Source: Tricharina praecox
Lineage: Eukaryota
Assembly: GCF_024521635.1 (NCBI RefSeq)
Contig: NW_026250415.1
Span: forward strand, 558,001-622,000
Direction: 5' to 3'
DNA: 64,000 nt
Shown here: in pieces, positions 9,804 through 45,100 of the stretch
How positions within the stretch are numbered: the stretch's first letter is position 1
How the letters are laid out: every line of letters begins with the position of its first letter
Made by a program: the position numbers and the translations under genes
Notes under the pieces: generated by a model
Databases searched by the model: none
Told to the model about the DNA's origin: nothing
Seen by the model: only the letters and a program-made list of their open reading frames with translations

Positions 9804-10334
9804 ATTTGTAAACATTGTCTTGGCTTGCTGCGTCTGTTTAAATGTGCTGAGTGATTGCCTGGTTGGTGCGTTTTCGACTTGTAAGTTGTGGTAGCTTTTC
9901 GGATGCTGATGTTTCTATGAGCCCGAGGAGTGTGGTGGGCATGACATGTGAGCGGCGAGTTTTCTGTAGCATCGGGGGAAAAATATATTGCGTTGAGTGC
10001 GTGTAAATACTAGACGGTCCTAATGCACCCAACAAGAAACCCCTATTCTTTCAGCCGTAGGTTATAGAGCTTGAAGACGAGTAATGGGATCGTCTTGAGA
10101 CTCGCAACTTTTGGTTTTTGGTTTATTATTCTTCAATTCGGTAGATAGAGTACCTGCATTTATTTCCGCAACCGACTAATCGCTAGCAAACAGCGAGTGC
10201 TGGACCATGACCAAAACCTTGAGACCGGCGTGCGGGTGATGTGGTTTAATACGGTTCTCGGCAACATACTCGGGGACTTCAGACATTAGCGCTCGATTCC
10301 TACTCGCTGATTCCGCAAGCTCATCGATTATCCT

Positions 10335-12030
10335 TCCGAGATATCTCCGGGTTGTTGCCGAAGAGTCCGTGGATGCTCAAACGTTGGTATGATAGGTAGG
10401 GTATGGACCGCTGGTTGGTTCCTTACCTTAAGCTCACAGACTATACGTCCGAGATATCTCCGGGTTGTTTGCGAAGAGTCTCCGACGAGTCTGCCGCTTA
10501 GAGCATTGAGGTCACCGCTCCACTGCTAAGGCAAATAGAGTACACGCTTCAACGCCGAACGTGCACACGGCCCGTGCTTGCTATACAGTGGACCCACGCT
10601 TGCATGTACTACCAACTAGTACCAAACGTGTCCGAGGCCACTTGGGACTCATCTTAGGTCGCTTGAGGCGCACCACCGGCGACACAATCTATAGTGTCGG
10701 TGACATTAAGCCTGGCGTGGCTTTGTGGCTGGTTACATCTGTGAGTCTCATCACAAGTTTACCTCGCAGTCCGGCGCTGGCTCGGCGTGGCTCGGCGTGG
10801 CTATGTGGCGGGTCACCACCGACCAAGGCAAGAATATCTCGCCTCTCAGATGGGGGGTTTTTTTGGGGAAGGGGACAGGATGTTTTCTGCTTGGTTCGGG
10901 TTTAGAACACGGCCTCGAGTATGGACTCTACCTAAGGATGTTTTCCACTGCTGATAGGACGGCAGTGTATGGGAGATGACCGGGTTGACGTCTGTCGAAC
11001 ACACGACTCGAGATCAATGCCACGTTGCCTCAGATAAGGCTGGTACAAGCGTAACACTGTCAAAGCCCTTGGCGGTGGAACGGTGACCTCAACAGCGGAC
11101 CCGTCGGCGACATTTCGGACTCATCTGGAGGATGTATGTTTCCGAAGACTTTCCGAAGACTTTCCGAAGACTTTCCGAAAAGATTCCTCGGAGATATCTC
11201 GGAGGACAACTGGACGTGCATTTTTAGTGGAGTAGGCATCAGTCAACGGCGGCTCAAGCGCTGGAGTAAGCGCTCAGACGGTCCGTCGTAGTGTGTAGCG
11301 GTAGCGGCATCTACAAGTACTACCTAGAGTATACACTTGGGCATAATGGCGACACCGCAACACCGCGATGACACTGTGGATGCCATTACGACGGCTGGAA
11401 TTTTGCCTCTGATGTTTTTACATACGAGGCGAACAGTGCGGAATCGTGGTTTAATCGTCATGGCATTGGTAGATCATGGCCGAGTACCTAGAGTACATAC
11501 GGTGTGATCCCTTTTCTCTCCACCCTTGGCCACACCTCCGCCCACTCTATGCTCCCCCGTGGGAATGGGGTTGGTGGCGGTACATAATACGTGGGTGCGG
11601 GAGGTTCCGGCCGGCTTGTATGTATCTACTCTACCTGTGGCACTGAGGGCGTGTGTCCGTGACTCCGTAGGGAGTGCTGGCAATAACCACGCCCAATACT
11701 CCGTTTTCTTGGCTAAGTTCCATGATCCAAGTTCCAACGCACGAATAATATATATCTATAGATGTGATTGGTGTGCGGAGACATACTCGGACACTTCGAA
11801 TCCCAAGCGCTCAAATCTGTGGCTGCCTAGTTAACCGCGATCGGTGCCAAGTTGGGCATCTATCCGAGGCGGGTAGGTACATATCACCGGATTATCTCCG
11901 AAGAGTCTCCGCAAAACGAATGCTTCAACGTAGGTATATAGGTAGTGCCTAGGTAACGGGGATTAAATGCTTCCGAGATGTCGCCGATGGGTCAGGCGAG
12001 GTGCACATCGCCGCAGGGACACAATCTGGT
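10335..12030. repeat. Degenerate dispersed repeat family, direct and inverted copies (probable non-autonomous transposon relics)
   Basis: CCGAGATATCTCCG at 10336 (+), 10449 (+), 11189-11202 (-); TTGAGGTCACCG(C/T)TCCAC(T/C)GC(T/C)AAGG at 10506 (+) and about 11066-11092 (-); CCGA(G/A)ATGTCGCCGA(T/C)GGGTC at about 11973 (+) and 11099-11119 (-); (TTTCCGAAGAC)x3 at 11139-11178. Confidence 0.6.
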
Positions 12031-25636: not shown

Positions 25637-27258
25637 AATGCATGCACCTCCTCGACAGACAGACAGACAGACGGATCGACAGAAAAGCTCGGGGGCATGA
25701 GGGGGTTCTTTTTATTTTTTATTTTTGCGCTTCTCCAACGGTCGCTTCAAACGGTTTTTTTCTTTCCTTTTTTTCCTTTTCTCCTTCGTACTTGAGAGGA
25801 CGGGTCTGCATTCTTTGGGCGTTAAACATGCATTTGGCACGAAGGTTTCTTGTTTTCCTGTTTTCTGAGATGTTTCGGTTTTACTGTTTTTTTGTCTTCC
25901 CTTTCAGTCCATCTTTTGCACACGGCTACATACCGGTAGTTGCCGTTTCGTTTCGTGGCGCACAGCTCGGCCTACATACCTGCCAGCGGGGATTTACAGA
26001 GTAATTGATCGATCGTCGTTCCCCCACCCCCGACCAAATCCAACGGTGTGTGCTCTACGTGTGTTCGTGTGTGCGTTATGTGTGTGTGAGAGTGTGTGTG
26101 AGTGTCTGCGTGCGTAACGCTCGATTCTAACTTACTCTACATCCATTCCATCCGGAGACTCCCGGGCGGTCGGTCGGCCAGCTGGCGATTTCAATTCAAA
26201 GGAACGATAAGGAAGTTTCTTCTTTTTCGTTGCTTTTACTTCTTTTTCTTTTCTTTTGCTTTTATTTTGTTCTGCTTTTGCTTTTGCTTTTCTTCCTTTT
26301 GCTTTTGTTTTGGAACCGACCGCATGGGTTTTTTGTTTTGTTTTGTTTTGCCGCCGTCGACGCCCCGCGACCCCCGCCCCCGCCGCGCCGCGCCCGGTAT
26401 CGATGCGTGCGGACTTCTGCGTGCTGCACACCCGCCCCGTGACATGACGGCGTGGTGGTCGTGGTCGTGACATGACATGACGGCGTGATTGCGGTCGCGG
26501 TCGTGTTTGGAACCCGCACTGATGTTCCGTGCCTTCGACTTCGCGCATCCATCCAGCTATCCAGCGCATCGATATCCACCGGCTGCTATTGCAGTGCCAG
26601 TGTCAGCGTGCACTAACTAGAGTAGCGGATGCGCACGACGTGCATGCACGACCAACGTTGGACAGCATGGGGGGGGGGGGGGGGTGCTGGCCACAAGCAG
26701 CGACCGCACGCCGTTTCGGAGGGTTGTTTGGAGAGTGTGATGAGAGTGTGATGATAAGAGTGTGACAATTCAAGCGCTGGGTTGATTTGGGGGAGTGGGG
26801 GTGGGGAATGCACGCTCACCTGCCATCACTCGGCTTCGAACTCGCTGCCGTGTGTATGTTGGTTACTAGGGTAACTCAGGTAACCAACTCCGGAATCCGG
26901 AGCTGCAGAGATCGGTCCGGCAAGGACGTGCACAAGGACGGCGACGAGGGAGGTTTCGGGACTCGGTTTGCTGGGCCTCAAGTTACTATGTATGTTTGCT
27001 GCCTCGAAACGAAATACATGCCGGTTAATCCCACCGATACTACATGCTCATAATGTATCACTCGCGCCGGCTGATAATCTGGAAATACTGCGCCCCACTC
27101 GCGGAAAAGCGGCTCACGGAGCGCAAGCAATACCGCCGTAGGCAGGGTTCAATGCTCATGGAAAGACACGGTAGAGAGCCGGTATATAATTCAAATACCA
27201 TAACCGTTACAGTACGTACATACTCTACACATATCCCGCAACCTCCCCTCCGTTTCAT

Positions 27259-28964
27259 CTACACCAACCCCAACCCCAGGAGCCTATTCCCGACCTCCAG
27301 AAAGAAATAATCCGCATAGACGAGTCCATGATCCGCCCACCTCCTGGGGGCAAACTCATGATTATTAATCGTAGCATTCAATAATATCGTATCTCCGCCA
27401 CTGCCCAAGTCCACGGCGTCGCTCCCATCATCACGGAACCTCGCCGGCGGTGCGAGCGACATCTTGAGCGTAGCGTCTAGGATCCGCAGCGCGTGCGAGA
27501 GGAACCTCACTTCTGGCGTCGCCTCGTAGATACATAGGAACCCACACACCGCGATCATCGCCGCGGACGTGTCACGGTAAGTGGGACGTGGAGCGTCGAA
27601 ATCCCTAAGGGGCAGGCGTCAGTGCGTGGACGGGAAGGTGGGGAGGGAGGGGGAACTAACCAGTGCGGAACTCCGTCTCCGTCGTCGAGTCTGGAGACAA
27701 AGTATTCGCCGAGATTTATCGCGGCGTCGAGAAACGCTTGCTTGCGGGTCCAGGCGTAGCACTGCGCGAAGCCGAGGATGCCCCAAGCCTGGCCACTGTT
27801 GCGGGTCAGTAACGGTACTAACGGAGGCCGTCTCGGCATGCGGGGGCCGCGAGGAACTTACCGGCTCCAGGTGCTGTCGTCCGCGTAGCCCTGGTTCGTG
27901 AGCTTCTCCTTGACCGCCCCCGTCTCCTGGTCGAAGTTGACGACGTGCACGGTCGACCACTGCGGATGTCGGATGTGGTGCTTCAGTGAGTTCTCGGCGT
28001 GTGTGGTTGCGATGCTGGATAGGCGGAGGTCGCCGGTCTGCGCGGATACCCAGTAGAGGAGGTTTAGATCTGGAGCGATTGCCCATCAGCATCAGATACG
28101 GGATCAAAGGTGCGATGTACGCATGTAAGTACTCAGCATATTGTCGATAATGACCAAGAAATCCGCCTTAGGATCCTCAAAAGCGTAGCGTTTGGTACAG
28201 CACGTGTCCCAGCTACGTATCAACCCAACCCTTGGCTCAAACCTGCTGGCAAGGCTATTCGCCGCGGTAACTAGCGTATCCAGCGAGCGCCTATCCCCGG
28301 TGAGCTCATAATCCTTCTGGAACGGCAGCAATATCATGAATCCCAAGTCATGAGTATCTGTTCTGTGAGCCTGAACATGTAGATTTTCCGACCACCAGCG
28401 ACACGCATAGCGCAGCTTCTCGACATGCAACTTCTCTATGGGAAAATGTCCCGGATACACCTTCGCCCGCTCCAAAAGCAGGTACAGGCTCCCGGGAAAA
28501 AACCCCGACGTCCAGAAGTCCGCTGCGGTGTAGCTGTACGAGCTCGATCCCGGTGGCGTGTACTCCGGCATTTCTGTCGGTGGCGATGCCCGGTCCAGTG
28601 CCCCCCGTGCGACCCCCCAGATCTTCGCTACGGCGCTCGGGGAGAATAGCGCGCTGGTTGCGGATATCCGCTGCGAACGCGCGAGCCGCTCAGAGTCTGT
28701 CTGCTCGGGCTGAGTTGTTTCGCCGCTGGCGAAGAGCAGAGGCGGCGAGGCCGTCGGCGTGGGCATCTGTGCGGCTTCGGATCCCTGGGCATCCCAATCA
28801 GCTAACAGTACCAAGTACCAACGGCATCCAAGCACCCAGATTCGCAATACCATCTCCGCCCCCGCCCGCTCATCCCTCCTCAACCGATGCACTCCGTTCG
28901 CCTTCCGCTTCTTGCTGATGGGGGAGTCGTCACTTGTGCGGAGCATTTCGGCGTGGTTCGTCAT
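27259..28964 (-). CDS. Unsaturated glucuronyl hydrolase, glycoside hydrolase family 88, no signal peptide
   Basis: FWTSGFFPGSLY, THDLGF, IRSWD, VIIDNMLNL, WDFDAP...RDTSAA, YADYFFLE; introns about 28785-28850 (66 nt, in frame), 28069-28132, 27606-27661. Confidence 0.92.
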
Positions 28965-29117
28965 TCGCCAGCGTTAAGGATAGGATACGGTTGGGACTTC
29001 TAGTTGATTATTTGAAATCCCTTCGTTTTCCCAGATTATGTACTTATTATAACTGCTACATACGAGAACGGATGAACGGTACGATGAGCTTTACGGTTTC
29101 CTGATGATGACGGAGCC

Positions 29118-29142
29118 CGGAGGAATCGCCGGAGCGCCTCCG
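29118..29142. promoter_or_regulatory. Candidate Zn2Cys6 binding element upstream of GH88
   Basis: CGGAGGAATCGCCGGAGCGCCTCCG; 22/25 identical to the reverse complement of 34802-34826. Confidence 0.7.
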
Positions 29143-29496
29143 CTCAAGACGGAAAATTAGGCCCCGCTCGGTTGGATGATTACCGGAGTATGTAGAGGCA
29201 TCATCGTACTGCGAATAGAGTAGGCCGGTTCCCCATGGGGATCATTCTTTTGTGGCAAATAATAGGCAACAGGTCAATGTGGTAACTGTCTGTCGAGCCA
29301 AAGTGTGCAGCTTATATAATCACGTATGGAGAAAACGTACGGCAACAGTTCACAGGAAAACCCCACTGAGCTCAGCCCGACAGGGGAGATATGGATGTGT
29401 GGACTGCGGTATGTATGATGGCCAATATGATAGTATTTCACACCTCTCCCCAGCAGAATGTACTGCTTCCTAGTCTAAATGAAAACCTTTAAAACA

Positions 29497-32189
29497 TCAA
29501 AGAGGTCCTCCATTATACATCAACACCCGATCCAATTCCAAGAACTGCGGGTCGGCAAAAAGATTCGATATCTGTGCCATCTGCTCCGCACTCAACCCTG
29601 CCTCCATTTGCACATGTTGCTGGTGCATGCTCCCGGGACTATTGCTGCTCTGCATGAAATTCTCATAGAATGCCGTGTCCGTTTGGAACGCGAGGGGCAT
29701 CGGCGGCGAGGCGAGGGAGAGAGGTTCTGAGGCTGGTATATACTGGTTGTCGAGCTCGAGATAGCCGGAACACCCGTTCATGGTGCCGGTGGTGGTGGTG
29801 TGGTTGGTGTCTGAAGAGTACGCGGGTTGCCGTAGGTCCACGCCGTTGTGTTTTGCTGATGCCTGCGTTTGCGCATTCAACAGGTTGCGTGCAAAGCGGC
29901 TTGCGAGGTTGTCGGATCCGTTTTCGGTGACGTAGACACCTTGCCAGCGGTTTGAAAGCTCAAGGAGAGACTTGACTAGGAGATGGAATTCGGGGAGGAG
30001 CTCGAGGCGATAGTATGTTGAATGAGCTTATATAGGAGGTCAGCGGGTACATATCGGTTGAGGAGTGAAGGATGGGGTACCTAGTAGCGATCTTCCGGCC
30101 ACAAACAGACAGAACGCAAAGTGTGGGTTTGTGATGCCGGCATTGTGGATGAGGTACTGCTGGGTGATGGTTGAAATCTCCGTGGCAGCCGACACACACG
30201 TGTCAACAGAGCTTGCCTGCGGCAGTTTCATGGCGCTGGCTTGCCACTGAGCGGTGGGAAATGCGATGCCTTGGTGCAGAAGGATAACCGAAGTGTTATG
30301 TGTGATGTGAGCCAGTGTGAGATTCGGATCCATTCTGGGTTCCGCATCGCGAACAGTCGCCTCCCGCCATTGCGGGGGCAGTGAGAGTTTCCACTTGACG
30401 AGCGCAAAGTCAAGCTCTTTAAAGCGCATCAGCCAGTGTTGTACATCTTCGATGTTTTGCGGATTGACGGCTTGTTGGAGAAAGAACCGAGTGACTTGGC
30501 TCTATTCTTGTGAGCTCACACGCATATGTAGGGTCCATCGATACGCACCAATGACTCGGTTGCTTCTATGCAATACGCAAATCCTCCTAGTGATGCAACC
30601 TCTTCCGGACTCTGTGCCGTACTATTTGTAGGGGCGTCGAATCTCTGAAGTCCTCCCGGCTGGCTGCTATCTCCAATTCCGAAGTATCGGGTCTTCACTG
30701 GCTTTTCGGCTTCCCAGATAGCGCCTTCACAAGGTAGCCGTCGGCGCGCGTCTGCACTAGTTAGGCCTGGATTCCACCCTGTCGACACACTACAGAAACG
30801 ATCGAGCAGGAAGACATTCCAAAATACACGCCGCCGTTCTTCGGACTCTACCCAGTTCCTCGGTTTTCCAAGGAAGGACAGGCGGTGTATCATGCGATGG
30901 CTTGCGCCATTGGCCGTGCCGTACGACTGGCCTTGCTGCTCTGTAAAATCATCTTCAAAGCTCAGCTGGAGGTGCTCGACTTGTCGAGACATGCAGTCGA
31001 CTATCGCCCAAGATTTCGGGCCCCTTCCGGATCCAATCTTTGGATCATAGTCAGTAAGTAGGCCACTATAAGGGAGTAATTCGCATACCGTGTCAAAAGC
31101 TACGATGATCAAAGCTTGTAAGTTTTCAACCGAGAAATTCTCCATGCATTTCAAGATGACATTCTGCCGGCAGATCTTCGACAGCCGTTCTCGCGTCTCC
31201 TGCTGTTCCAGTCGGGGGTCTGAAGAAAACCTAACCGTGACTACAGTGATGGCACACAGGATGGTAGAAAGCTGGTCTCGTTCCGCGGGGCTGTCGAGTT
31301 TTCGAAGCAAGCATTGCTGGTGTATGACTGGTATCCAGGGGTGTATCGTATTGAAGTATATCGCAACAAGTTGCTGCATCAGATCGAAAGGAGGAAGATC
31401 CGGGTCGTCGAAGAAATTGGTTATCGATCGCTTTCTGGACCGTATGGTGGGATTGTCCCGAACATCGCCTGCTTCGCTAGAGCCGTCCATCCTATTCGGC
31501 GTAGACGGACTACCAGTATTCCCGGAGTGCTGTCTACGAATCTTTTGAGGTACAGGGTTTGCATTATCGATGTCAGCCGAATTTGAGTATGCGTCCATTA
31601 GGTCTCTTTTCAAGCAAGCGACTTCAGCTGTGATTCTCTGCTGTGCCGTGCCGGTAGGTTGTGGCGTGATGACCGCCATGTTCAACGGCGTTAACTGCGT
31701 AGTAGAAGCAAGTAGCTGTCTCATAAGAAGGCTCTGGCCAATAAACATCTTCTCCAGAGCATCTTCAACCGGCGGTCAGTCGGCGTCCAGGCCGGATTCG
31801 CTTCTTCGCGGACTGGAAAAAAAAACAAGCGCACCTAGCCGTTGAGACAACGACTCGACGACTCCTGCCTTCACCCCCGGCTTGGTCTTCGACTCGTCAT
31901 ACTGACACTCAACCCCTAGCACCATTGTTTAGCGGAACTGGGCAGCTACAAACGCCCCATTCTCGAAAGTTCGCACCGAACCGGACGCAGAGAGTGCATG
32001 GCTGTTCTCGGGTGCACTTTGCCTTGCGCTTGCGGCACGACTGGCAGCTAGTTGGCAGCAAGTCAGCGAGGCACAACGCGGCATCCAGGATGTGTTGGTG
32101 TACGCTGGCCCTTCGTCTTCCTGCGGCTCCGAGCCAGTCTCAAGCTCATTTTCCTCGCTCTTGCGTTTTCCCCTCGAACTGCGGGACAT
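29497..32189 (-). CDS. Zn(II)2Cys6 transcription factor with fungal-specific TF middle domain
   Basis: After removing introns 32048-32103 and 31916-31976: ACQSCRKRKAKCTREQPCTLCVRFGVEC (CX2CX6CX5CX2CX6C); YFNTIHPWIPVIH; EERRRVFWNVFLLDRF. Further introns; 3' exons approximate. Confidence 0.9.
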
Positions 32190-32874
32190 GGCTGGTTGGT
32201 TTCGTTTTGGTTGGGTTGGGTTGGAACTTCTTCGTCGCGCGGGAGACTGTGATCGCAGAAGTTTGGACTTTCCTAGTGACAACGTGTATGTACGGCGATG
32301 CAATATGCAGATTGTGGGGGAGATATCCTGGGGTAAAGTGACGCGGCAACTCGGCTGGATGCCGTCGCTTAATTTAGCCGGGATGACTTCATCCAAAAAG
32401 GTTGCCACACGACGATTCTTAGCAAAAGCCAAAAGTAAGAAGTCAGGTATAAGGTATGTGCCTAGAAGGTTGTTCATATCGCTGCACAGCTCTCATTGCG
32501 GATAGCCCTCGAAGTAAAACAGCCAGAAACAGTTCGGAATTAAGGCATTTACGTTGATTCACGCTCGTCGTTTCTATTCAGTGGTTGACAACCAACCCAA
32601 ATCACTAGACAGCATTGAATGGGTAGTTCGAGCTGCTAATTACTCTACTAGGTATATATGCTAACTCACAACCCGCTCATAGCACAGGCGATCACTCTAG
32701 TCTGTGAATGTCCTCTCTTTACTGAATTTCAATATTCTTTGTTTCCCGCTAACTTAACCCGCCAAATTCGTCACCGAAATAAAGCAATTGCAGATCCTCC
32801 AACAAGTTTTCCTCCCACATAGCCCCCATCATAATACCACCCCACCCACCCCAGTCCGTCCGTTCCATACATCC

Positions 32875-34599
32875 TTAAAAAGCATAACGAAAGTCGGGAT
32901 TCTCCTGATCCGTCAAGTCTTCAAACGCATGTGCATGTTCAATCTTCTCCTGCGCCACATCCGTCACGCCCGCATCGCTCCTCTTCGCCGCATTCCGTCT
33001 GGTAAGGATAAACCTCGAGATACAGACCATCGAGATGAAGAATATGTACAGAATCAGGTGGGCGATGAAGCCATGCCTGTAGCGCGGCTTATCGCTGGCC
33101 TGGAAGATCTGGGGGGCGGTCATGTTGCCCGCGGCCCAGGCGCTGTGGACACTGAAATCAGCATCGCATGCGAGTAAAAGGGCGGGGAAAGAACTTACAC
33201 AAACGTGATGGTCAGAGTGACACTCTTCTTCGTCTGCCCGGCGATGTTCCGCGAGATCAGCGAGAAGATCATGTTTCCCTGGGCCAGGAAGAACTGCGTG
33301 CAGTAGAACGCGATCAGTAGCCCGACCTTGTTACTAGCATTCGGCGTGATCTGCATTATCACGACTGTTCCCACGATCGCCGGAACCGTCCACAGCAACA
33401 TGACGGCGCAGGTTTGTTGGTATTTCGTGGCCAGAGTCGCACTGCCGATCATGATCGCGATGGTGATGGCTCCCTGCGCGATGTTCAGCAGCTGTGTTTG
33501 AAGATACGTGAACCCGAACGCCTTGATGATCAGGTTCGAGAACACCCCGAGGCCGCCGATGATGAGCGTACTGCTCGTCTGCAGGAGCACGTAGCACCAC
33601 ACCATCGGATCGGTCAGTGCTTCGACGATCTGGTACTTCTTGTATTTCTTATTCTGGATACCGGTTTCGTTTGCGCGGACCCGCTCGATGAGGAGCTTCT
33701 TGGTGTCTTCGTCGAAGCATTTAGCCTTCATGGGGGAGTCGGGAAGGTAGTAGCCAATGAAGCAAGCCCAGACGCAGGTGAGAAGACCCAAAACGAGGAA
33801 GAGCAGTTGCCACGATCTAATGGGCCCGTCGTTGAAGTGGGAGACTCCGAACGCGATCAGACCTCCCACCATGAGCTGCACGCCAAACATGCAGTACCAT
33901 AAGGACGTCAGGATCTGCTGTTCCTGGCGCGTGTACCACATCGCCGTGAGGATGATGAATGCCGGCTGGACGCAGGACTCGAAGAACCCCAGAAGGAACC
34001 GTACCGCCATCAATGAACCGAAGTTTTGAGCGGCCGCGGAACATGCTACGACTGCGCCCCAGCAGAAAACACTTCATCCCCGAGAATGTTAGCATCATGG
34101 ACAAGAGGGGGGTGCTACCGGTGACAATGACTTACTTGACGGACAGATACTTTGCAATGGGCAGCTTCTGTAGCAGGAAATTGGTCGGATATTCACCCAC
34201 CAGGACGCCCATGTACAGGATCGTTCCCAGCCAGGAAAACTGTTGTCCGACAAGATTCGCATCCTCCTGGATGTTCATGATGGAGGAAAAGCCCAGGGTG
34301 CCTTTGTCGAGAGACTGGCAGAAATAGGTCTACATATCCAATATTAGGCTGGGGGGTCTGAGAATGCGCGCCAGAGAAAGACGGTGTCTTACACCCAACA
34401 TGATCACCAGCACCCTCTTGTTCACTTTCCAGAACAGCTGTTTGTTGAGCTCTTCGCCAATGATGATGTGCTCGACGCCGGCTGTGTAGCGCGCGACATC
34501 CCTGTCGGCCTCGGTATCGACGACGCGATCAATCGTATCATCGGCCGCCTTTTCGCTCGTGCTGTGAACACGGTTCACATCCTCAGTTGGTGGAGGCAT
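32875..34599 (-). CDS. MFS transporter, anion:cation symporter (DAL5/allantoate-permease-like) family
   Basis: QSLDKGTLG, RFLLGFFES, MWYTRQEQ, WQLLFLVLG, LPDSPMKAK, NIAGQTKKS, APQIF, C-terminal FEDLTDQENPDFRY; multi-exon. Confidence 0.92.
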
Positions 34600-34801
34600 G
34601 GCTGACTGTTTGTTCAAGGGTGCGGGGGGCGGGGGTGTGGGGAGGGAATCAGGGGACTGGAGAGCTGCGGATTAGAGCCGAGTTGGCCCAACAGCAGGAT
34701 AAGCATTTAGTATCTATATAAATCCGGGGACGGTTCAAATGGTACGGAAGATCATATTCCAGCCTTCAATTGCAGCCCTACGTGTGGGGTAATGGGCTGT
34801 T

Positions 34802-34826
34802 CGGAGACGCTCCGACGATTGCTCCG
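34802..34826. promoter_or_regulatory. Candidate Zn2Cys6 binding element upstream of the MFS transporter
   Basis: Minus strand reads CGGAGCAATCGTCGGAGCGTCTCCG, matching 29118-29142. Confidence 0.7.
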
Positions 34827-35759
34827 CTGGCCGCTCTACAGCATATCACTCGCCCCGGCACAACAATCGACGTCAGATGGATCGTAAAACGGACCCCATG
34901 AATTTACAGCTCACGTACATTAATGCTGGCAAGGATTCTCTGCTTGTGTAGGGTTCGCTTCTGAAGCGCACAGGCGGGGTGTTTTGTCATGTGTTTCTGA
35001 ACAGACATGCACTCGGGGGGCACCCCTCATGACTGTGGTCCAATCATCACAATACCGACCGGTCAAAAGATTGGATGAACATAAGCTCTCCAATATTCCA
35101 GCGCGGGGGCCAAATTCGCTTCAGCTCCCGACAACAGCCCGCCTCCGGCCCTAACGAAATCGACATGCACATGTAGAGTGCCAGTACCAACCAAAGGCTC
35201 CTGGCAACTGTCAGTTAATGCCGCCGTATGAACCAATCACTACCCAATACCCAAAAATTCGAATCACACTCATACATCTCTTATTCGCCCAAGAGTCAAA
35301 TTTTTCAATAGTCTACTTCCACCGCTACTCGAGCGCCGCACAACTTTATCCTCCTGAAACAACTTTGCGACACAACACCCGACCAAGCAGCAGCGATGTC
35401 CGAAGTACCCACCGGCTGCGAGGTAGCCTCCAAGCCACTCAGAGCACTTGAGAAGCCCCGCGCCCACCTCCAAAGTAAAGAGCTCAAGACTTTCTTACAC
35501 ATCCACAACTACAGAATCTTGCCCCCATAGAAATCGTTAGGTACATACTTTATACGTTGCGTGGAATCCAAAGAATCACAATATTACCGGAGGATCAACC
35601 GACAAAGCAGCGGGACATCCGGTGAAGTTGAAGGACGGCTTCATTACCAGAAATTATTATATCTGCTGGAGGAAAGGGCATCCGCTGCTGGCCACGATGA
35701 CGGGACAATGATGACTCCGCTCGATGCCGACTCATTCAAACACTTGTGCAGCATGCCAT

Positions 35760-35995
35760 TGAAGTCAAGTGAGTATGACGGATGGAGCCATCAAGCCTTG
35801 AATCTCGAGACTCAGCCGTTGAGGATGTGGTAGGGTCTGGTAAAATAAGCGGGCTCACTACTAGTAAGTATCCTCGATTATCTGTCATGGCCTGGGAAAT
35901 ACTTGGAATTGACGCCATGTCTGCTGAGACTCCCGAGCAGGTCTTCAATCCCTAGCACCAGGATGACTAGATGTCATTGACCGCCGATAGAGTAT
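35760..35995 (+). mobile_element. hAT-superfamily transposase relic (C-terminal dimerisation domain)
   Basis: 35866-35946 translates KYPRLSVMAWEILGIDAMSAETPEQVF, matching the hAT pattern (R/K)YPxLSxMAxxILxIPAMSAExERVFS; preceded by SEYD...QPLRMW* (TGG TAG at the usual WW) and followed by DRR*; stops and frameshifts present. Confidence 0.72.
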
Positions 35996-38900
35996 GTGTA
36001 GTGAGGTTTGTGGGTGTCTCGGGCATTAGGAAGTACGAGTTGACACTTGACAGCTCGAAGGCGGCAGCTGAGAGCCACGCCATAACTTCATTTCAAGTTT
36101 CAACCTGAGAATCGCCCAAATTCTCTAACCCACTGCTGAGTTTTGAATTTTCCGTCGGATTACTAGTGTAGAGCCGTGTGAACCAAGCGGCCCATCCAGC
36201 TCAAGGGGGGACGTGATGCAGGCCATCACTCCACAGCCCAGCTGCGGGTTAACTAAGGGGCTATTGCCAGCACGGGTACATCCGGGGGGACCCAGTCCCA
36301 CCGGGAGAAGCCGAGACGGTGGCGGCAGTGTTGTTGGAACTTGGGTCCATGATTGTCAGCGGGAGGCTGACTTTGCAGACTGGGGATGCGGGAACGGGCG
36401 GAAGTTGGAGCAGCCTCCATCGCGGTGATTTCGACTGAAACGCACAGACAATGGATCATGGATGATGAACGCGATAGCTTGCCTTACACCCGTAGTTATT
36501 CTTTTTGGTCCGGAAAAAAAAGAATATGTATTGTACTACCGGAAGTAGAATGAGTGATTGACTTATAGATAGGCTGGGGGAGGTTTTGTAGAGCGCCGTG
36601 CACAGGAACTAAAATTATCACCACAACAACAGACATGGGTCCTTGCAAGAAGAGTAAAGCACCCACGCTGATTAACTATCGTGTAAACCGAGTCCTTGCC
36701 ATCGACATTGATTACTGAGGTTCATAGATCAGCGTGTACTACCTACGGGATGTAAACAAACATGGTGGTTGGTAGTAGAATGTCTCAGTGCTCCAACTTC
36801 CGGTTCCCTTTCCCTCGCAAAATGGAACCAGAAAACAAATAGCAAAGCACGGAGAAACTCTAGAGGATCCGGCAAGAGTTGGATTTCACTGAATCTTCTG
36901 AAGTCGTCAAGAGCCGAATAGTGAATGTATTGGACGCGAAAGATTGCGCGAGTAACTCGGTTTTGTGCCGGAAGAAACTCACAGAAGTACGGCTGTGATA
37001 CAGCGCATTGCGAGCAAAATCACGAGGTCCGAAGTAGGATAGCAGAATATAAACTGTAACTTCTGAAGACATCTTGCTTGTGGGATCAGTCAAGCTACCA
37101 GTTAATGTGGTTGTAGCTCTTGAAAAAAAGAGCCGAACCTCCCACTTTCCGTGCGCGGACAAAACCCTCATATACCCCCTGATGGTTCTAGAGTAGTTCT
37201 AGTGCACGAAATCTGTAGAACCTCCCTTGTGTTTCGGGCCGTTGGGAATGTTTTCCTGATTCCTCGGAGCAAGGAACGGGCAATAGGCATTACAAAAAGG
37301 CGCTCACGGAGGTCTTCCGTCTCACGTCCTTAGACCTAAACCCTCAGAAGCTGGCAAAAAAGAATGATGGAGTGAAGGATCTCCAACCTGCTCAGAAGAG
37401 CCCATGTAGGGGGGAAAGCCGAATGGAAATCGAATGATGTCGCGGTTCCAGACCCCTCGTCCTCAATTCAGAAGGTTGGGAAATCCCACTCACAGACTCG
37501 GTTCAGAAGCTGGCCACCGGGGGACCACCTGCCGGCCGGGAAGGGGGTGAAATCCTCGAGAAGAAAGAAGCGAGACCCAACAGGAAGCGTCGTGAGGTTC
37601 GCCACCCGGCTATGTGGCATCAATGATCGAGGACGTCGCTTCCAGCCAACAGATATTGCTGCGGCTGCCCGCACGGTCCTTACAAACTCCAGATATGTAT
37701 GGAACCCACGGATGCGGGGAGCTCAGTAGAGCCTTGTCTTACTTTTTCTGGTCTGCAGATGTGTCTGTAGGATCTTTTCCCCCTGCCATACGCGTATGCA
37801 TGCTACGTAATTAGCCATGGTCCACCCGGAGCTACTCGCTATCAAGACACTCCAGCCTGTGTAAGGAGTTCGAGGAGCGGTGGTCTGCCCGTGTTGTGGT
37901 GTAGACGGGAAGTGGGTCGGCCCAGCTGCAGACATCCGCCTAGGGCTGAATCGCAGCTACGGAAGAGGTGGATTGGGCCGATGAGACGAGTTCTCTGTGC
38001 CATATCAGCGCTCGTCTTCTGAATGCTGCGTGCATTTGGGGAATTGAGGTCACACGGCAGTCATGCACTGGGCGACTGTAAACAACTTCAGCTCCGCTGT
38101 TCGGCTGATCCGAGCCCTACAGAAACGCGTCTGGAAACATGCTGAGTGCGGACCTTGCTGCGGTGCATGCTTGGGAGAAACAACGACGGCAGCGAAGAAA
38201 GAGGTGGAGAGAGTATCCTGAGTCCTCGCCTATCAGGCTCGATTTGGCAGGGCTTAGTGCTGAGCCTGCAGTTTGTGCGACATCGACGACGGATGTCTCG
38301 GCTACAATTCCTCGGGCCAGTCCTCTTTCTTCTCCATCGCCACCCGCGCCCCACCTCGTGCCGCGATCTGCACGCTATGTATTGGCTGGTCACTTCTCCG
38401 CAGAACAGATCAACCGGATGGATGTAGGACGAAGCTGCACCTCGAGGTCGAAGCCAGCTGAATGGCTCAACTAGCTCAAGCCACATGGCATGGGGCTTAG
38501 CGCAATATATGCAGGTACATTCGTCGTCCCCCCGTCTATGTACTCCACATTGCGAGCAGACTCTCACGGGTATGTAGGGGAATTCCAAGTAGTTACTGCT
38601 CTACGGACCCGCCGAGGAAGCTGCCTGCCAGTTGAGCGGCAAAACCTCGAAGCGATCAAGATTCCCCGAAGGAGGCAACATTCCAAAACAACTGGCCCGG
38701 AATGTCGACGGTCTGGAATTCTAAATTCCCAGACAGTGCGGACATGCGGTAACAATCGCGCCGGAGAGTATCCGCGTTCTCGCATCGAAAATTCAGCCAG
38801 GGGATTGGCGTTTCGTTTCCAGCTGAGCTGTCACTGGCTTTCGTATGCACAGTGGAGATGGAGGCCACACGGAGAATATGAGACGATGTCTCACGCGTCC

Positions 38901-39168
38901 ACGGACTCAGCCTCCGAACCGGCCTTCTCATGCATGCGGTAATCCGGGTGGAGTTTAGGTCTATTCTGGCTCAAGCTTCAGTTCCTGTCGTCGACATATC
39001 GGGGAGCACAAGTGGTATAGCAGACACCCTTCCGGAAAGAGCATCAGGATGGGGTCGCAGCTCTACATAAAGACGTCTTCTCTTCCACCTCAGTCTCGCT
39101 CACCAGTTCGACCAACCAGATTCCTCTATTGCTTCAATCCTTTACTTTCTTTCACACTCATCGCGAAG

Positions 39169-42100
39169 ATGCTTTTCGATTCGGTCTTCAAACCCAACGG
39201 GACCAATGGAGGTACATTTCTTCTAGCCATTCATGGTCTTCGTGTCATGGTGGCGGCACATTTCTAATAGTGCTTGAGAATAGTCGCCAACGGCACCAAA
39301 GGCCATACGAAGGACGACGTATCTTCGAACGGTGACAGTAGCAGCAGTGGCACTGCGACCCCCATTCATACGGATAGCCTCACCATCCGTCAACCCCTAC
39401 CTGAAATGATCAAGCCAACTATGACGCGAGTATACGAGTCGACCCAGGAGACGTATATTCTCAAAGACACCACGACGTTGATCACCGTCCGGTGCAAGAA
39501 GGAGTTTCCCTCGAAGGTAGACGACATCTTGACGGGAGTGCCCACCTGCCATGCATTCCTGGATTTCATCGCCACCGAGAGATTGAGGAGCATGCCACAC
39601 AAGGGAAGCAAGTGGGATAAGGTCTTGAAGTGGGCCGAGGGCTACAGCCGAAAGGTCGATGCGTACTCGCATGCTATCAGTGGCTTCGCCCCTCATAGCT
39701 GGGAATCGGCAAGGCTTGTTTGGGGATGCTGTCGGTGGCTTTTGCGGGTAAGACAACTCGTGCACGTCTGGCGAATGGGCTTTCTGACGCGTCTTTAGAT
39801 GGGCCCGGAATACGTCGAGATGCTTGAAAAGATCTTCGGTGTCATGTGCCAGATCGGACAGACCCTCGACTTCTTCCTGAAGAATAAGCGCCTTTTCTGT
39901 GCCTCCGTGGAGATTCAGGACATCCTTGCTCTGGCATACTCCGATCTCATCCGATTCACGGTCGAGACCACCATTCATTACAAGAAGACCACGAGCATCT
40001 GTCTCGCAGACTTCGATATCCTGTTCGGCCGTGTTGTTGATTCCTTCTTCCACCGCAAGGAGTGTTTCACCAGCGAATCGTGGGCCTGCAGTTTAAGAGA
40101 AGAATCCCTTACTACCACATCCACCACCACCATTCACATCATCCGGCAATGGCTCTCGGTCCAGGATAGAACCTTAGATATCTGTCTTTCCAACCGCATG
40201 GGGACGCGTACCGCCAGATACGAATTTACCTGCGAGTGGTTTGAGAGCCACATGCGGGAGTTCCAACGTGATAGGACCGATGTGCTATGGGTGTGTGGAA
40301 AGTCCGGCTCGGGTATGTAATTCCCCTCCTCTGTGGCGCTACCTTCCGTCTAACTGAGCCTAGGAAAGAGTGTACTCTCTGGTTGGATCCTGGAGAGACT
40401 GCGGAGAACCCAAGGTACCCGCAATGGCTATGACGTTATCTCCTATGCCGTTGGTGAGTGCTACTAGATATACCCTACGCTCAACGGATGACACTTACGC
40501 AAGACACAGATGCCAATCTTAAGAGCGAAAGGTCGTCGTTCAGCATCGTGAGGTCGCTGCTCCTGCAACTCCTTGAGAGGAACGTTGGAGACTTGTCGGT
40601 CTACAAGATCCTTTCGGCACTCTATGAGCGTGCGGAGCGCAGTGGAGTAACCGACAACCTTGAAGCCGCTCTGTGGAAGGCTTTCGACTCCGCTCTGGGA
40701 CGAAGCGAGTGCAAGTTGATGATTGTCATTGACGGTCTCGATCATCTGGATGGCGGCGAGCCTGTGATCTGGGAGCTTTGCGAAAGACTGCGCTGCACAG
40801 CATCTAAGTACAGCTACGTCAAGTGCTTGCTCCTCTCCCGGCCGTTGAGCAAACCATGCCCGTCCACCATCAAGGAGTTCGTCATCGAGGCAACCTGCAA
40901 CACTGCCGACATCAAGCGGTTTGTCGACATAACCATCAATTCTTGCATCGAGTTCAAGACCCTCAAGGTTGAAGAACGCCGCAAAGTTGTCGAGACGATC
41001 ACGCAAACTTCGTCCGGCACGTTCGTATGGGCCGAATATTCCCTCCAACTGCTTCGGATGGAGAAAACGGTGGCCAATATGATGAAGTGCCTCGACACCC
41101 TCTCGACCATGAAGACCCTGGATGATATTCTTCACAAGCTCATTCTCAAGCTCGACCTCAAACAGTCGGATACCAAACTTTTGATATGCCTACTTCTCGC
41201 TGCCGAGAGGCCGCTCACCGTTCAGGAGCTCGGGTGCCTGTTCGAGATCGACGTCACCAACTGCAGCCGCTCCGCCCGCCTTACCAAGATCGAGGATGAT
41301 ATCCGTATCGCCTGTGGCTCTCTAGTCACCATCCGCGATGGGCTCGTGTGCTTTTCGCACGTCTCCGTCAAGGACTACCTCATGGAGCTTTGTCTCTCGG
41401 ACGATGACTTCCCATTGAGTATCGAGGAAGCTCACACGGAACTCACCATCCGGAGTTTGGGGTACATGAAGATTTCTCTGAAGGGCATGGACCACGAGCC
41501 CACGCTTGAATGCGGTTGGGATGGCTCCGAAGAGGTCCTGCAGAAACATCAGTTCCTCGAATACGCCGCGCGCCACTACGTCATCCACTTCAAGCAATCC
41601 ACCATGTACAACTCCAAAGGAAGCCACAGCTGCTCGGCAACTTTCAAAGCCTGCTTTCCTAACTCCTCTTTCCTCGCGTTCATCGAAGGCAGCTGGTGGG
41701 AGACGCAAACCTGTGCCAGTGAAGCTGCAGAACTGCACCATCTTGCCCTGCAGCTCCGGAAGATCGCGCTGGGCGAGAAGTGCGTCTCGGTTGTCCAGTG
41801 CTACATCAACCTGGCCAGAACACAACAGAACCTTTCGAGTTATGTTTTTGCCAGCGAGAGTTACTACGAGACGTGGAAGATCGTTTGCAAGGTCTTGGGT
41901 GAGACCCATGCGATTACTCGCGCCTGTGCCAAAGCTGTTATCACTTGCACGGAGTTGGTCACTACCACCACTGCGACGGTCACTCGCACCGAGACTATCA
42001 TCAAGCGCAAGGAGACCATATACAAGTATATGTACACCCACTGCGAGACCAGCGAGGAGAAGATCACCTATGCCAAGGTGCTCGCAGAGCTTTACATCCA

Positions 42101-45100
42101 GCTCAAGAGGACGGAAGAGGCTCTCACGATCTACCACGAGATACGGAAGGTGTGCATCGAAGTCTATGGCGAGCTTCACGAGGAGACGACCACCATGACC
42201 AGATGTCTCACTAAAGTCCTCGAAGTTCTCGAGAAGCATGAGGAGTGCATCACCATCACCCGCAAGCTTTTGGAGACCTGCGAGAAGACCACCGAGGTGT
42301 GGGAGGAAAAGCGCATCACCACCACCATCACCATGGTCGAAGTCTACGAGAAGCAGAAGGAGATCAAGAAGGCTGAAGAGCTTTTGATCAGTCTTTGCCG
42401 AAGCATCACCGAGGTCTGCAGAACCAGCCACGAGGAACATTACCATGAGGCAAAAATCAAGATCACGCTCGAGTATGTCCGGTTCTTGGAGCGCTGCTCC
42501 AGAGACAAGGAGGCCGAGAAGATCTTGATCGAGTTGTGGAACGAGTTCAAAGGCCAGCTGAACGAGAATGACTGCAACCATGGCCATGGCTTGCTCATCC
42601 AGATCCGGATCATCGGCGACGAGTTGAAGAAGTGGAAGATTGTGGCGGTCGCCGAGTCCGTGTTCTCTTCTCTGTGGGGATTCTACAAGAGAACGAGCAG
42701 AACCACAAGTAAGGAGGCCACCTCTATCGCGATCAAGCTTTCCGAGGTTCTCAACATCAAGCAAGAAACCCATAGCGAGGAGACCATCTTGAAAGAAATT
42801 TTCAAGACCACCTCCACCAAGACCACGGTTGACATCACCGTCATTAAGACGTGTACGAAACTCAGCGCTTTCTACGAGCGAGAGGAGCGGTGGGCGGAGG
42901 CCATTAGTGTCTGCACCAAGTCCCTGGTCAAGATCTGGTCATCCCTCATCAGTTTCATCGAGAGCAGGTCGGGCATCTGCGCTCTGCCGGCGGAGTATTT
43001 CGAGGAGGCGATCATGATTGCACGGCGCCTCGCCATCTGCTATTTCAAAGCTGGCCACATTCACAATGCTGAGAGCGTCTACATCTACATCTTCAGCGCC
43101 TGCAGGTCTTCTCTGCAGGTCCACGACGAGTACATCCTTTCTACGGCGGAGTTTCTGGTCACCTTTTACGAGTCGATAGGCAAGATTGATCAGGCCCTCA
43201 AGATGTACCAAGAGCTGTATGAGGAGTACCAGGAAGTCCTTGGGTGCTCCCACACGCTCACGGTCAAGATCACCTACAAGCTTGCGCACTTCTGCACGCA
43301 GCATCAGCCCCGAAAGGCCGAGCAATATTACTTGGTCATTGTCACTTCCCTCGGTCACCGTACAGAGATTCTCGAGACGACATCCATCGAAGCCGTTCTC
43401 GTTCTCTGCCGGATCTACGAGACCGACAAGAAGTACAGCGATGCGCTCAAGTACTACCGCAAGCTCTGGCTGACCTTCTGCCGCCGCGGAGAAGACTGCG
43501 GGATGAGCACCGAGACCGTGCTGAACATCTACCAGAAATACGTATACATTCTGGAGCGGGAGTCCCAGTTCTCGATCATCTACGATGTCACCATCCAGTT
43601 CCGCGAGGCGTGCATCAAGCACTACGGAAAGCACCACCACATCAGCGTTCTCGCCACGATCGAGCTTGCGCGTGTCCTCGAGCGCGAGGAGTCGAAGCAC
43701 CAGGAGGCCATCGTCATCTACGAGGAGGTCCGCAAGATCATCTCCGAACACAGTGAGCTTAGGATCATCATGCAGGCCACCATAGTTGAGGTCCGCAAGC
43801 GGCTTGCACAGCTCTACGCTGTCCACACTTCGTCCAGCTCCAAGGCGGAGGTGATCTACATTGAGTCCTGGGAGGAGTATAAGTGCAAGCATGGGTGCTC
43901 ACACGAGGAGAGTCTATCGCGCCTCTACGAACTGATCATGTTCTTCAAGAAGCAGAGCACCAAGGAGTGCACGCATACGGCCACTATCACCCTCCAAACC
44001 ACCATCATTGAGATCATCACTAAGGAGAAGGACACGCAGCGGTTGTTTTTCGCCGCTGGATCGATCGCAAAACTCTACCTGGCATTGGGCCTCAAAGAAC
44101 TCGCGTTCGAGCTCCTCCAGGAACTCAGCCTGCAGCTCAACTCGGTCGAGGTCAGGACTTCGAAGAAGTTCGGGTTCTCGCTCCGCACTGGACACACGCT
44201 GGATCGGAGGTCTTTCCTCTTCGTCGTTGCATTCGAGGAAACGCTGAGGGGCAACTGCTCGGCCAATCTCTACGCCGAACTGATGACCGACCTCGTCACC
44301 GAGACGACACTGTACGAGAGCTGGATGCGGACGCTGAAATACGGCGGATCATTCGAGTCCTCGCTCAGCGTTGGAGCTCGGCTGCGGCTTTTCCTTGTCA
44401 GCAAGCACCGAGAGGAAGAATGCAACCGGATCACCGAGGAGCTTTGGGAGCTTTTCCAGGGCGGAGTTGGCAAGCAGGCGAAGAAGTCCGGCATCATCTG
44501 GGAGCTGTTCCTCATCTGCGTCAGGGAGATGGGAGTCGAAGAGCACGACCTTACGGTCCTCGAGACCGCTGCCACCACAGTGGTCACCCACTACGAGAAG
44601 GGCGACTTCGCGGGATCCCACGAGCTCGCCACTTGGACTTACCAGTACGTCAAGGTTCATGGCGGCTTCATCGAGCAGCGGAACCTCGCCGTTGGCTTCA
44701 AGATCTCCCTGTGTATGGCTGGGAAGGGCTCGCCGCCGTGGAAACGCTGCCAGGATGAAAAGCTGAAGGTGATGATGATGGAGCTTTCGCGCACCGTGTT
44801 GGCCGAGGTCCTCAAGGCCAGCGAGTCGGAGCATATGTCGTTCAGCAAGATGCGCATTGAGGAGGTAAACCTGATCGTTGGACTCCTCGGCGAGCAGCAG
44901 AACTTCAAAGATCTCGAGGTAACTTCACCCCTCCCCTTTCCCCTCTGTCCCGCGCCCTCCACCGCAAAACATACTAACAATCCTGATAGCGTATTCTCCG
45001 CGACCTCTGGGAAGCACGCCAACACCGCGCCTCATGGAGCGCAGACGTAATCGTGTCGATCGGCCACCGACTATGCGAAGTCCTCTTCGCCTCGGGCAAG

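Follow-up and report, generated by a model that had tools for sequence, protein, structure and literature searches.

Can two short, near-identical sequences that precede two genes of one cluster be recognised as the operator of the regulator encoded between them? The question is raised by a stretch of 64,000 nucleotides from Tricharina praecox (NCBI RefSeq assembly GCF_024521635.1, contig NW_026250415.1, positions 558,001 to 622,000 of the forward strand), hereafter called the window, which harbors genes for a GH88-family hydrolase, a Zn2Cys6 transcription factor and a transporter of the major facilitator superfamily (MFS). A 25-bp element with three CGG triplets is found upstream of both the GH88 and the transporter gene, and an earlier interpretation made from the letters of the DNA (the sequence-only reading) proposed that it is the binding site of the intervening factor. 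Zn2Cys6 proteins bind spaced CGG triplets. The analysis described here shows the cis-element to be real and conserved in a fungal cluster that is widespread and uncharacterised, and we consider it probable that the two copies are upstream activating sites of a conserved MFS/Zn2Cys6/GH88 cluster, likely bound by the factor that the cluster itself encodes.

The two copies in the window and the genes that they precede

The genes and the copies are arranged as follows (positions are those of the window).

27259..28964, minus strand: GH88-family (unsaturated glucuronyl hydrolase-like) gene, from RNA contigs and homologues
29118..29142, plus strand: element copy 1, CGG-N8-CCGG-N7-CCG, upstream of the GH88 ATG
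29497..32189, minus strand: Zn2Cys6 transcription factor gene, 783 aa, 6 introns, from RNA contigs and Pfam
32875..34599, minus strand: MFS transporter gene, 513 aa, introns 33143-33198, 34072-34135 and 34330-34392
34715..34722, minus strand: TATA box between copy 2 and the transporter start codon, with copy 2 about 80 bp upstream of it
34802..34826, minus strand: element copy 2, in inverted orientation, upstream of the transporter ATG

All three genes are located on the minus strand. Their models are based on spliced contigs of runs X2 and X4 (two studies), with minus-strand GT..AG introns; these runs carry no RNA label on record and were taken as RNA because spliced contigs were found in them. 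The contigs span all three genes, and both copies are found upstream of the assembled transcripts, in bins where the RNA depth is zero and the DNA runs continue; this gap is a weak hint to the same placement. The gene identities given by the sequence-only reading were borne out by the zinc cluster and Fungal_trans domain of the transcription factor, by the match of the transporter to Pfam MFS_1 (PF07690, 1e-21), which is also the family of all its named Atlas clusters (0.99), and, for the putative GH88 hydrolase, by homologues of that name.

The two 25-mers were found exactly where they had been reported, and copy 1 is identical to the reverse complement of copy 2 at 22 of 25 positions. The distance to the GH88 ATG (28964) is 154-178 bp for copy 1 and that to the transporter ATG (34599) is 203-227 bp for copy 2, in agreement with the approximate values of 155-180 and 205-230 bp given earlier. 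As both genes are on the minus strand and the copies are on opposite strands, the copies have opposite orientations relative to their own genes, again as had been stated. The differences are found at element positions 6, 12 and 20. Copy 1 has an exact CGG-N8-CCG in its left half, and the left repeat of copy 2 has TCG in place of CCG; position 12 is part of a half-site of this left inverted repeat (CCG versus TCG), and the earlier claim that all mismatches fall in spacers was therefore incorrect. The region upstream of the transcription factor gene (32190-32874) contains neither a copy of the element nor CGG-N8-CCG. The statement that there is no copy upstream of this gene thus holds for the window, but not for other fungi, i.e., two of the related loci described below (L002 and L014) have a site at this position.

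The consensus proposed by the sequence-only reading, CGGAG-N7-CGGAG-N3-CTCCG, has exactly two occurrences in the window, and tolerating 2 mismatches adds no more (shuffle mean 0.17; 2 occurrences were reached in 1 of 100 shuffles). When the two upstream regions are set against each other, the top-scoring pair of 25-mers agrees at 22 positions, compared to best matches of 16 to 19 in 200 dinucleotide-preserving shuffles. An all-versus-all comparison of 25-mers in the window yielded 22 pairs of at least 22/25, nearly all of which are low-complexity sequences or local tandem repeats, and the pair from the GH88 and transporter promoters is one of about 4 complex pairs among them. Because 22 pairs, about 4 of them complex, reach this level, the likeness of the copies alone is only moderately rare at the scale of the window, and the weight of the argument is carried by their placement and their internal triple-CGG structure. 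The longest exact run common to both copies is 7, which explains why the pair was missed by a repeat search with a seed of 8. In a related soil strain (run X3) both copies are unchanged; only about 3 differences per 440-530 b are found there, so that this observation says little.

The element in related fungal loci

Rearranged clusters from metagenomes can serve to confirm a site that a single window shows only twice. Metagenome contigs scanned with an alignment of fungal GH88 proteins (A1) yielded 80 loci, of which L001-L015 are fungal-looking; L007 and L008 are the same in sequence, and L008 was left out of all counts. The remaining loci are bacterial-looking and were used as background (726,895 b). 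The order of the cluster genes was determined by local tblastn with the three spliced proteins of the window. Genes for GH88, the transcription factor and the MFS transporter are found together in L002, L004 and L014, those for GH88 and the transcription factor in L003 and L007/L008, and L015 harbors a more distant version of the cluster. In L002 the MFS and GH88 genes are divergent, with the transcription factor gene downstream; L004 has GH88 followed by divergent transcription factor and MFS genes; the order in L014 is MFS, GH88, transcription factor. As judged from these predicted genes, the three-gene cluster is conserved but rearranged in other fungi.

Adjacent locus tags for GH88 and the transcription factor (PFICI_04100/04101, S40288_09575/09574, PV09_04149/04148 and DPSP01_010400/010401) are found in the named genomes of Pestalotiopsis fici, Stachybotrys chartarum, Verruconis gallopava and Paraphaeosphaeria sporulosa, and the pairing is indicated in many further genomes, including Lipomyces. 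Candidate carriers of the cluster among the matches are Botrytis, Fusarium, Trichoderma and Aspergillus species and Lipomyces starkeyi. All 120 of the 120 transcription factor homologues among the matches listed have only generic or automatically assigned names. As a separate observation, two database models join a homologue of the factor to other domains, namely P0217 to GH28 (Aspergillus species) and P0179 to a beta-lactamase plus a DUF (Fusarium species); these fusions are probably merged neighbouring genes, and the GH28 part of P0217 echoes a GH28-like gene in L002.

The skeleton of the consensus, CGG-N9-CGG-N7-CCG, was fixed before any of these loci was inspected, and its count is the only fully pre-specified test. 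It was found 3 times in 15,851 b of cluster promoters outside the window (L002 9573, L004 10187 and L014 9240), with a shuffle mean of 0.114 and a count of 3 reached in 1 of 2000 shuffles, and once in the remaining 128,851 b of the same loci. The motif discovery in orthologous promoters that the sequence-only reading had suggested was done as an unbiased count of dyads, in which all pairs of trinucleotides with gaps of 0-20 were compared between 23 cluster promoter regions (17,794 b) and the rest (190,908 b). This count places CGG-N8-CCG first (36 versus 7.9 expected, p 2.8e-13), and CGG-N19-CCG is found at rank 4.

The middle triplet is usually CCGG or TCGG, and the element can for this reason be described as two inverted CGG repeats that have one centre in common, i.e., CGG-N8-YCGG-N7/8-CCG around a central CCGG. 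What did not stand of the original consensus is the set of three fixed CGGAG pentamers. The best-kept portion of the element is its left part, CGGAGSAW-N4-CGG.

In the window and 14 fungal loci the generalised pattern is found at 15 distinct sites, 11 of which are located in cluster promoters and 4 elsewhere.

Cluster promoters, window: 29118 and 34802
Cluster promoters, L002: 9573, 9719 and 14290
Cluster promoter, L003: 369
Cluster promoter, L004: 10187
Cluster promoter, L009: 4999
Cluster promoter, L011: 1944
Cluster promoters, L014: 9240 and 14725
Outside cluster promoters, window: 24851 and 53762
Outside cluster promoters, L002: 2368
Outside cluster promoters, L012: 990

The generalised and left-half patterns, as well as the promoter windows, were set after the site positions had been seen, and the following counts describe the family and do not test it: the generalised pattern was found 11 times in the 17,794 b of cluster promoters (shuffle mean 0.118), 4 times in the other 190,908 b and 12 times in the 726,895 b of bacterial-type loci, and the left half, CGGAGSAW-N4-CGG, 10 times in 208,702 b of fungal sequence (shuffle mean 0.445) and 2 times in the 726,895 b of other loci. 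Scoring of whole 25-mers, with either window copy allowed, gave a marginal result: L002 has two matches of 20/25, and the 727 kb of bacterial-type loci contain one match at this level and several of 19/25. The separation is far better with the half-site and skeleton patterns. The skeleton alone is nevertheless too degenerate to define a regulon genome-wide, a use that the sequence-only reading had envisaged for the consensus.

The element is found in the cluster promoters of L002, L003, L004, L009, L011 and L014, so that the objection foreseen by the sequence-only reading, a lack of conservation in orthologous promoters, does not apply. Among the 6 distinct loci in which the transcription factor gene is found next to GH88, the tripartite site is present in 4 (L002, L003, L004 and L014), and it is also present in two of the five GH88-only loci with at least 500 b of upstream sequence (L009 and L011); the upstream sequence of L001, L006 and L013 is too short to judge. 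The flanks of the sites are unalignable across loci, and in a cross-locus blastn-short comparison of the promoters the motif itself makes up two of the four matches. The sites serve different genes of the cluster, as they are located in divergent MFS/GH88 and transcription factor/MFS promoters and, in L002 and L014, upstream of the transcription factor gene. Of the three cluster-promoter sites of L002, two are located between the divergent MFS and GH88 genes, and the third precedes the start of the transcription factor gene by about 230-260 bp.

Three sites in L014 (4613, 6394 and 9237) have a common variant, CGGGCTAT-N5-CGG, and are located upstream of a lyase-like/aldo-keto reductase pair, the MFS gene and GH88, which suggests a lineage-specific form of the motif. 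L014 and L008 are records of one metagenome, and in both of them GH88 is accompanied by a related Zn2Cys6 gene; the MFS gene and a lyase-like open reading frame are further present in L014, and a DUF2264 (GH154-like) gene in L008. The two clusters would be paralogous if both records are from one organism.

In the window itself, a left-half match is found apart from the two copies.

37265..37279, plus strand: isolated match to CGGAGSAW-N4-CGG, with no long open reading frame there; its membership in the system is uncertain

This match is located in a region of about 3 kb upstream of the transporter gene (about 34830-38000) without any open reading frame of at least 150 aa.

The probable regulator and its rivals

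The transcription factor is composed of a zinc cluster, a linker, a coiled-coil-like stretch and a Fungal_trans domain (PF04082; 6e-17, 62 bits versus a cut-off of 23). The zinc cluster, C-QS-C-RKRKAK-C-TREQP-C-TL-C-VRFGVE-C (CX2CX6CX5CX2CX6C), falls within the Zn2Cys6 pattern CX2CX6CX5-12CX2CX6-8C and is split by an intron, for which splice joints are found in the RNA contigs. The zinc cluster, linker, coiled-coil-like region and intron position are kept across loci, and the best solved match of one orthologue (P0121) is the DNA-binding and dimerisation region of Gal4, residues 9-117 (7uik_T, E 3.6e-7). CGG/CCG triplets at a fixed spacing that are enriched in the promoters of the presumed targets, as found here, are the mark of a Zn2Cys6 site, and a zinc-cluster regulator very probably docks at the element. 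Among such regulators, the cluster's own factor is the most likely candidate, because it remains linked to the sites through the rearrangements and because sites are found upstream of its own gene in some species.

A mechanism can be outlined in which we infer the stoichiometry, the inducer, the direction of regulation and the identity of the binder alike. A Gal4-like Zn2Cys6 coiled-coil dimer would bind inverted CGG repeats with a spacing of 8 bp, and the second, overlapping repeat could offer an alternative or cooperative register or accommodate two adjacent dimers. A uronate-containing oligosaccharide would act as the inducer, upon which the factor would switch on uptake by the MFS transporter together with cleavage by an intracellular GH88 hydrolase.

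The Gal4 upstream activating sequence, CGG-N11-CCG, is the model for a Zn2Cys6 dimer on inverted CGG repeats, and CGGAG/CTCCG half-sites are also present in the optimal Gal4 17-mer. The system described here resembles that of Gal4 in the combination of Zn2Cys6 domain, linker and coiled-coil-like region, in the inverted CGG triplets and in the location of the factor within a pathway-specific gene cluster. In contrast to Gal4, the spacing is 8 and 7/8 instead of 11, two repeats overlap on one CCGG, the predicted targets are a GH88 hydrolase and an MFS transporter, and the site is known from sequence alone. Among Zn2Cys6 regulators, compact CCGG half-sites have a precedent in the CCGG recognition of Gsm1, and elements with three triplets have one in the CARbox of Cwt1/Zcf11 (PMC12719309). 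These factors are described there as AcuK/AcuM-type regulators of gluconeogenesis and respiration that are unlinked to their targets and act on direct N7 repeats or other layouts. An AcuK/AcuM-type site was considered as a candidate for the element and rejected, as those sites are direct N7 repeats with another layout (PMC12719309).

A number of observations weigh against the assignment of the element to the factor of the cluster. In addition to the definition of the generalised and left-half patterns after the fact, the tripartite site is missing in two loci that harbor both genes, i.e., L015, where only a left half is found near the start of the transcription factor gene, and L007/L008, where there is none; no site is found in the GH88-only loci L005, L010 and L012. 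The spacing of the right repeat varies between N7 and N8 (5 to 9 with looser sites), and the left repeat of copy 2 has TCG instead of CCG, both of which are odd for a rigid dimer. The choice of the cluster's own factor is drawn from linkage, and the left half of copy 1 has the CGG-N8-CCG skeleton quoted for another regulator, ClrB (PMC8313289).

This last point leads to the rival explanation that survives best, which we nevertheless regard as rather unlikely, namely that the element is a genuine Zn2Cys6 site that is bound by an unlinked regulator, such as one of the ClrB/CLR-2 type or another carbon-source regulator, and that the factor of the cluster has some other role or site. The putative ClrB site of A. 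nidulans and A. niger is CGG-N8-CCG and that of AmyR is CGG-N8-CGG (PMC8313289). The triplet skeleton and the spacing of the former are shared by the left half of copy 1, but not by copy 2 or several orthologous sites, which have TCG. The sites described here differ from the ClrB site also by their extra conserved bases, their third triplet and their frequent use of TCG for CCG; ClrB governs cellulase and mannanase genes, and its name is borne by none of the homologues of the factor among the matches listed, a comparison made by name only. A GH88 gene of A. niger is tabulated as AraR-dependent in PMC5701360, and the cluster's factor is a candidate binder by linkage, both of which would leave room for an unlinked regulator. 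However, the site moves with the transcription factor of the cluster through several rearrangements and is found upstream of the gene of this factor in L002 and L014, the conserved bases past the CGG triplets (CGGAGSAW...) point to a dedicated specificity, and there is no AraR, XlnR or GaaR motif in the regions upstream of the GH88 and MFS genes in the window. These observations argue against an unlinked regulator.

That the copies are a chance likeness, or the functionless relic of a small duplication, is very improbable. Pairs of equally similar 25-mers do occur in the window, a few of which are not of low complexity; however, no shuffle of the two promoters exceeded 19/25, the internal triple-CGG structure is independent of the likeness between copies, and the recurrence of the same architecture in orthologous cluster promoters with unalignable flanks largely refutes this explanation.

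It is likewise very improbable that a mobile or dispersed element around the transcription factor and transporter genes has left the copies as its terminal inverted repeats or as relics, even though near-identical inverted 25-mers do bracket a segment of 5.7 kb. The likeness ends at the 25-mer, beyond which the flanking sequences are unlike each other, and there is no direct duplication in the bases just outside the two copies. The sequence-only reading had allowed that the motif might be part of a common dispersed repeat, which is not so in the sequence available, as there is no third copy in the window. Furthermore, other fungi have single copies in divergent promoters of reordered clusters, unlike terminal repeats.

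An equally remote idea is that the palindromic right half (CGGAG-N3-CTCCG), with its potential 5-bp stem, functions in a 5' leader as a hairpin of RNA or DNA instead of binding a protein, as might be suggested by a TATA-like box at 29313, farther upstream than copy 1; against this stand the opposite orientations of the copies relative to their genes, the conservation of CGG triplets and not of the stem in orthologous sites, the lack of RNA depth over either copy in the contigs of the two studies (a weak hint) and the absence of any Rfam match in 26000-39000.

Neighbouring genes and other features

The genes next to the sites in related loci offer some indication of what the cluster may do. In L011 the site separates GH88 from a divergent gene whose product clearly contains an Alginate_lyase domain (2.4e-83), and the L002 site at 2368 is found just upstream of the GH28-like gene. 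A 424-aa open reading frame (L002 2754-4028) common to L002 and L014 was linked by Atlas to alginate-lyase clusters (0.95); it has no match in the PDB and no significant BLASTP match to the L011 lyase, and its Pfam match to Alginate_lyase has an E value of only 0.016, which fails the cut-off. This frame is a lead only, i.e., a weak alginate-lyase-like candidate without a family assignment. A DUF2264 gene adjoins GH88 in L007/L008, L012 and L015, and the frame in L015 matches solved beta-D-glucuronate dehydratases (9o4u and 9nwf). These enzymes, formerly GH154, convert terminal GlcA to an unsaturated form that is cleaved by GH88, according to PMC12269599; the term "DUF2264" is absent from the searchable literature. 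Taken together, the predicted neighbours, which include a lyase, an aldo-keto reductase, a GH154-like dehydratase and members of GH27 and GH28, suggest a system that imports glucuronide-containing oligosaccharides and degrades them inside the cell.

Bacterial GH88 pathways with a GH154-type dehydratase are similar in that DUF2264 is found beside GH88 in the loci named above. In contrast, the bacterial loci are regulated as polysaccharide utilization loci or operons, whereas a eukaryotic Zn2Cys6 factor with an upstream activating sequence would take this role in the fungal cluster; the cluster in the window also differs from the bacterial pathways in that it harbors no dehydratase or lyase gene.

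A broader interpretation, which is tentative and less likely to be true than false, is that the element is the operator of an uncharacterised regulator across Ascomycota (Lipomyces to Pezizomycotina), two dimers of which would bind cooperatively to the overlapping repeats. This regulator would control a so far unrecognised pathway inside the cell for oligosaccharides with beta-glucuronide or unsaturated uronate. Besides uptake by the MFS transporter and cleavage by GH88, the pathway would in some lineages include an alginate-lyase-like enzyme or a GH154-like dehydratase. If this holds, fungi would have their first described regulon dedicated to uronate oligosaccharides, and its promoter element would be a defined and inducible one.

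It is textbook knowledge that Zn2Cys6 factors encoded in gene clusters bind CGG repeats. The element is thus of a well-known kind and does not represent a new mechanism; it is this member that is new. No regulator or motif for fungal GH88 clusters was described in the literature searched (supplements not covered), and no paper on a CGGAG motif together with Zn2Cys6 was found by title. The conserved cis-element provides a direct route to deorphanise the regulator and, together with the neighbouring genes, may point to the substrate.

The GH88 gene of the window has introns at 27604-27659, 27796-27861 and 28784-28849 in the RNA contigs. Its homologues number 325 at E <= 0.001; the 120 matches listed have identities of 45-63%, and many of these are named GH88 or unsaturated glucuronyl hydrolase, some with PF07470. 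When the exons were searched singly against Pfam, the largest exon had no match at E <= 0.01 and the C-terminal exon had a weak match to GlcNAc 2-epimerase, and the putative membership in GH88 is taken from the names of the homologues. No characterised fungal GH88 was found in the literature searches. A canonical 63-nt GT..AG intron is predicted at 28070-28132 (minus strand) and is required to restore the conserved ...IIDNMLNLNLLYW... stretch; it contains in-frame stops, yet is retained in contigs of both X2 and X4. The joints in the 5' region of the gene also differ, i.e., X4 skips 28784-28849 (minus-strand GT..AG) and X2 skips 28769-28815 (plus-strand GT..AG), which suggests alternative or antisense splicing in this segment (28769-28849, low depth).

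Two further observations concern other parts of the window. Short repeats are clustered at 10326-11911, with a pair at 10326/10439, an inverted pair at 10506/11068 and the same 13-mer at 10472 and 11899. At 40458-45047 (plus strand) a 1530-aa open frame with multiple TPR repeats and a weak GPIID winged-helix match is found, the predicted product of which looks like a fungal NLR/STAND-type protein.

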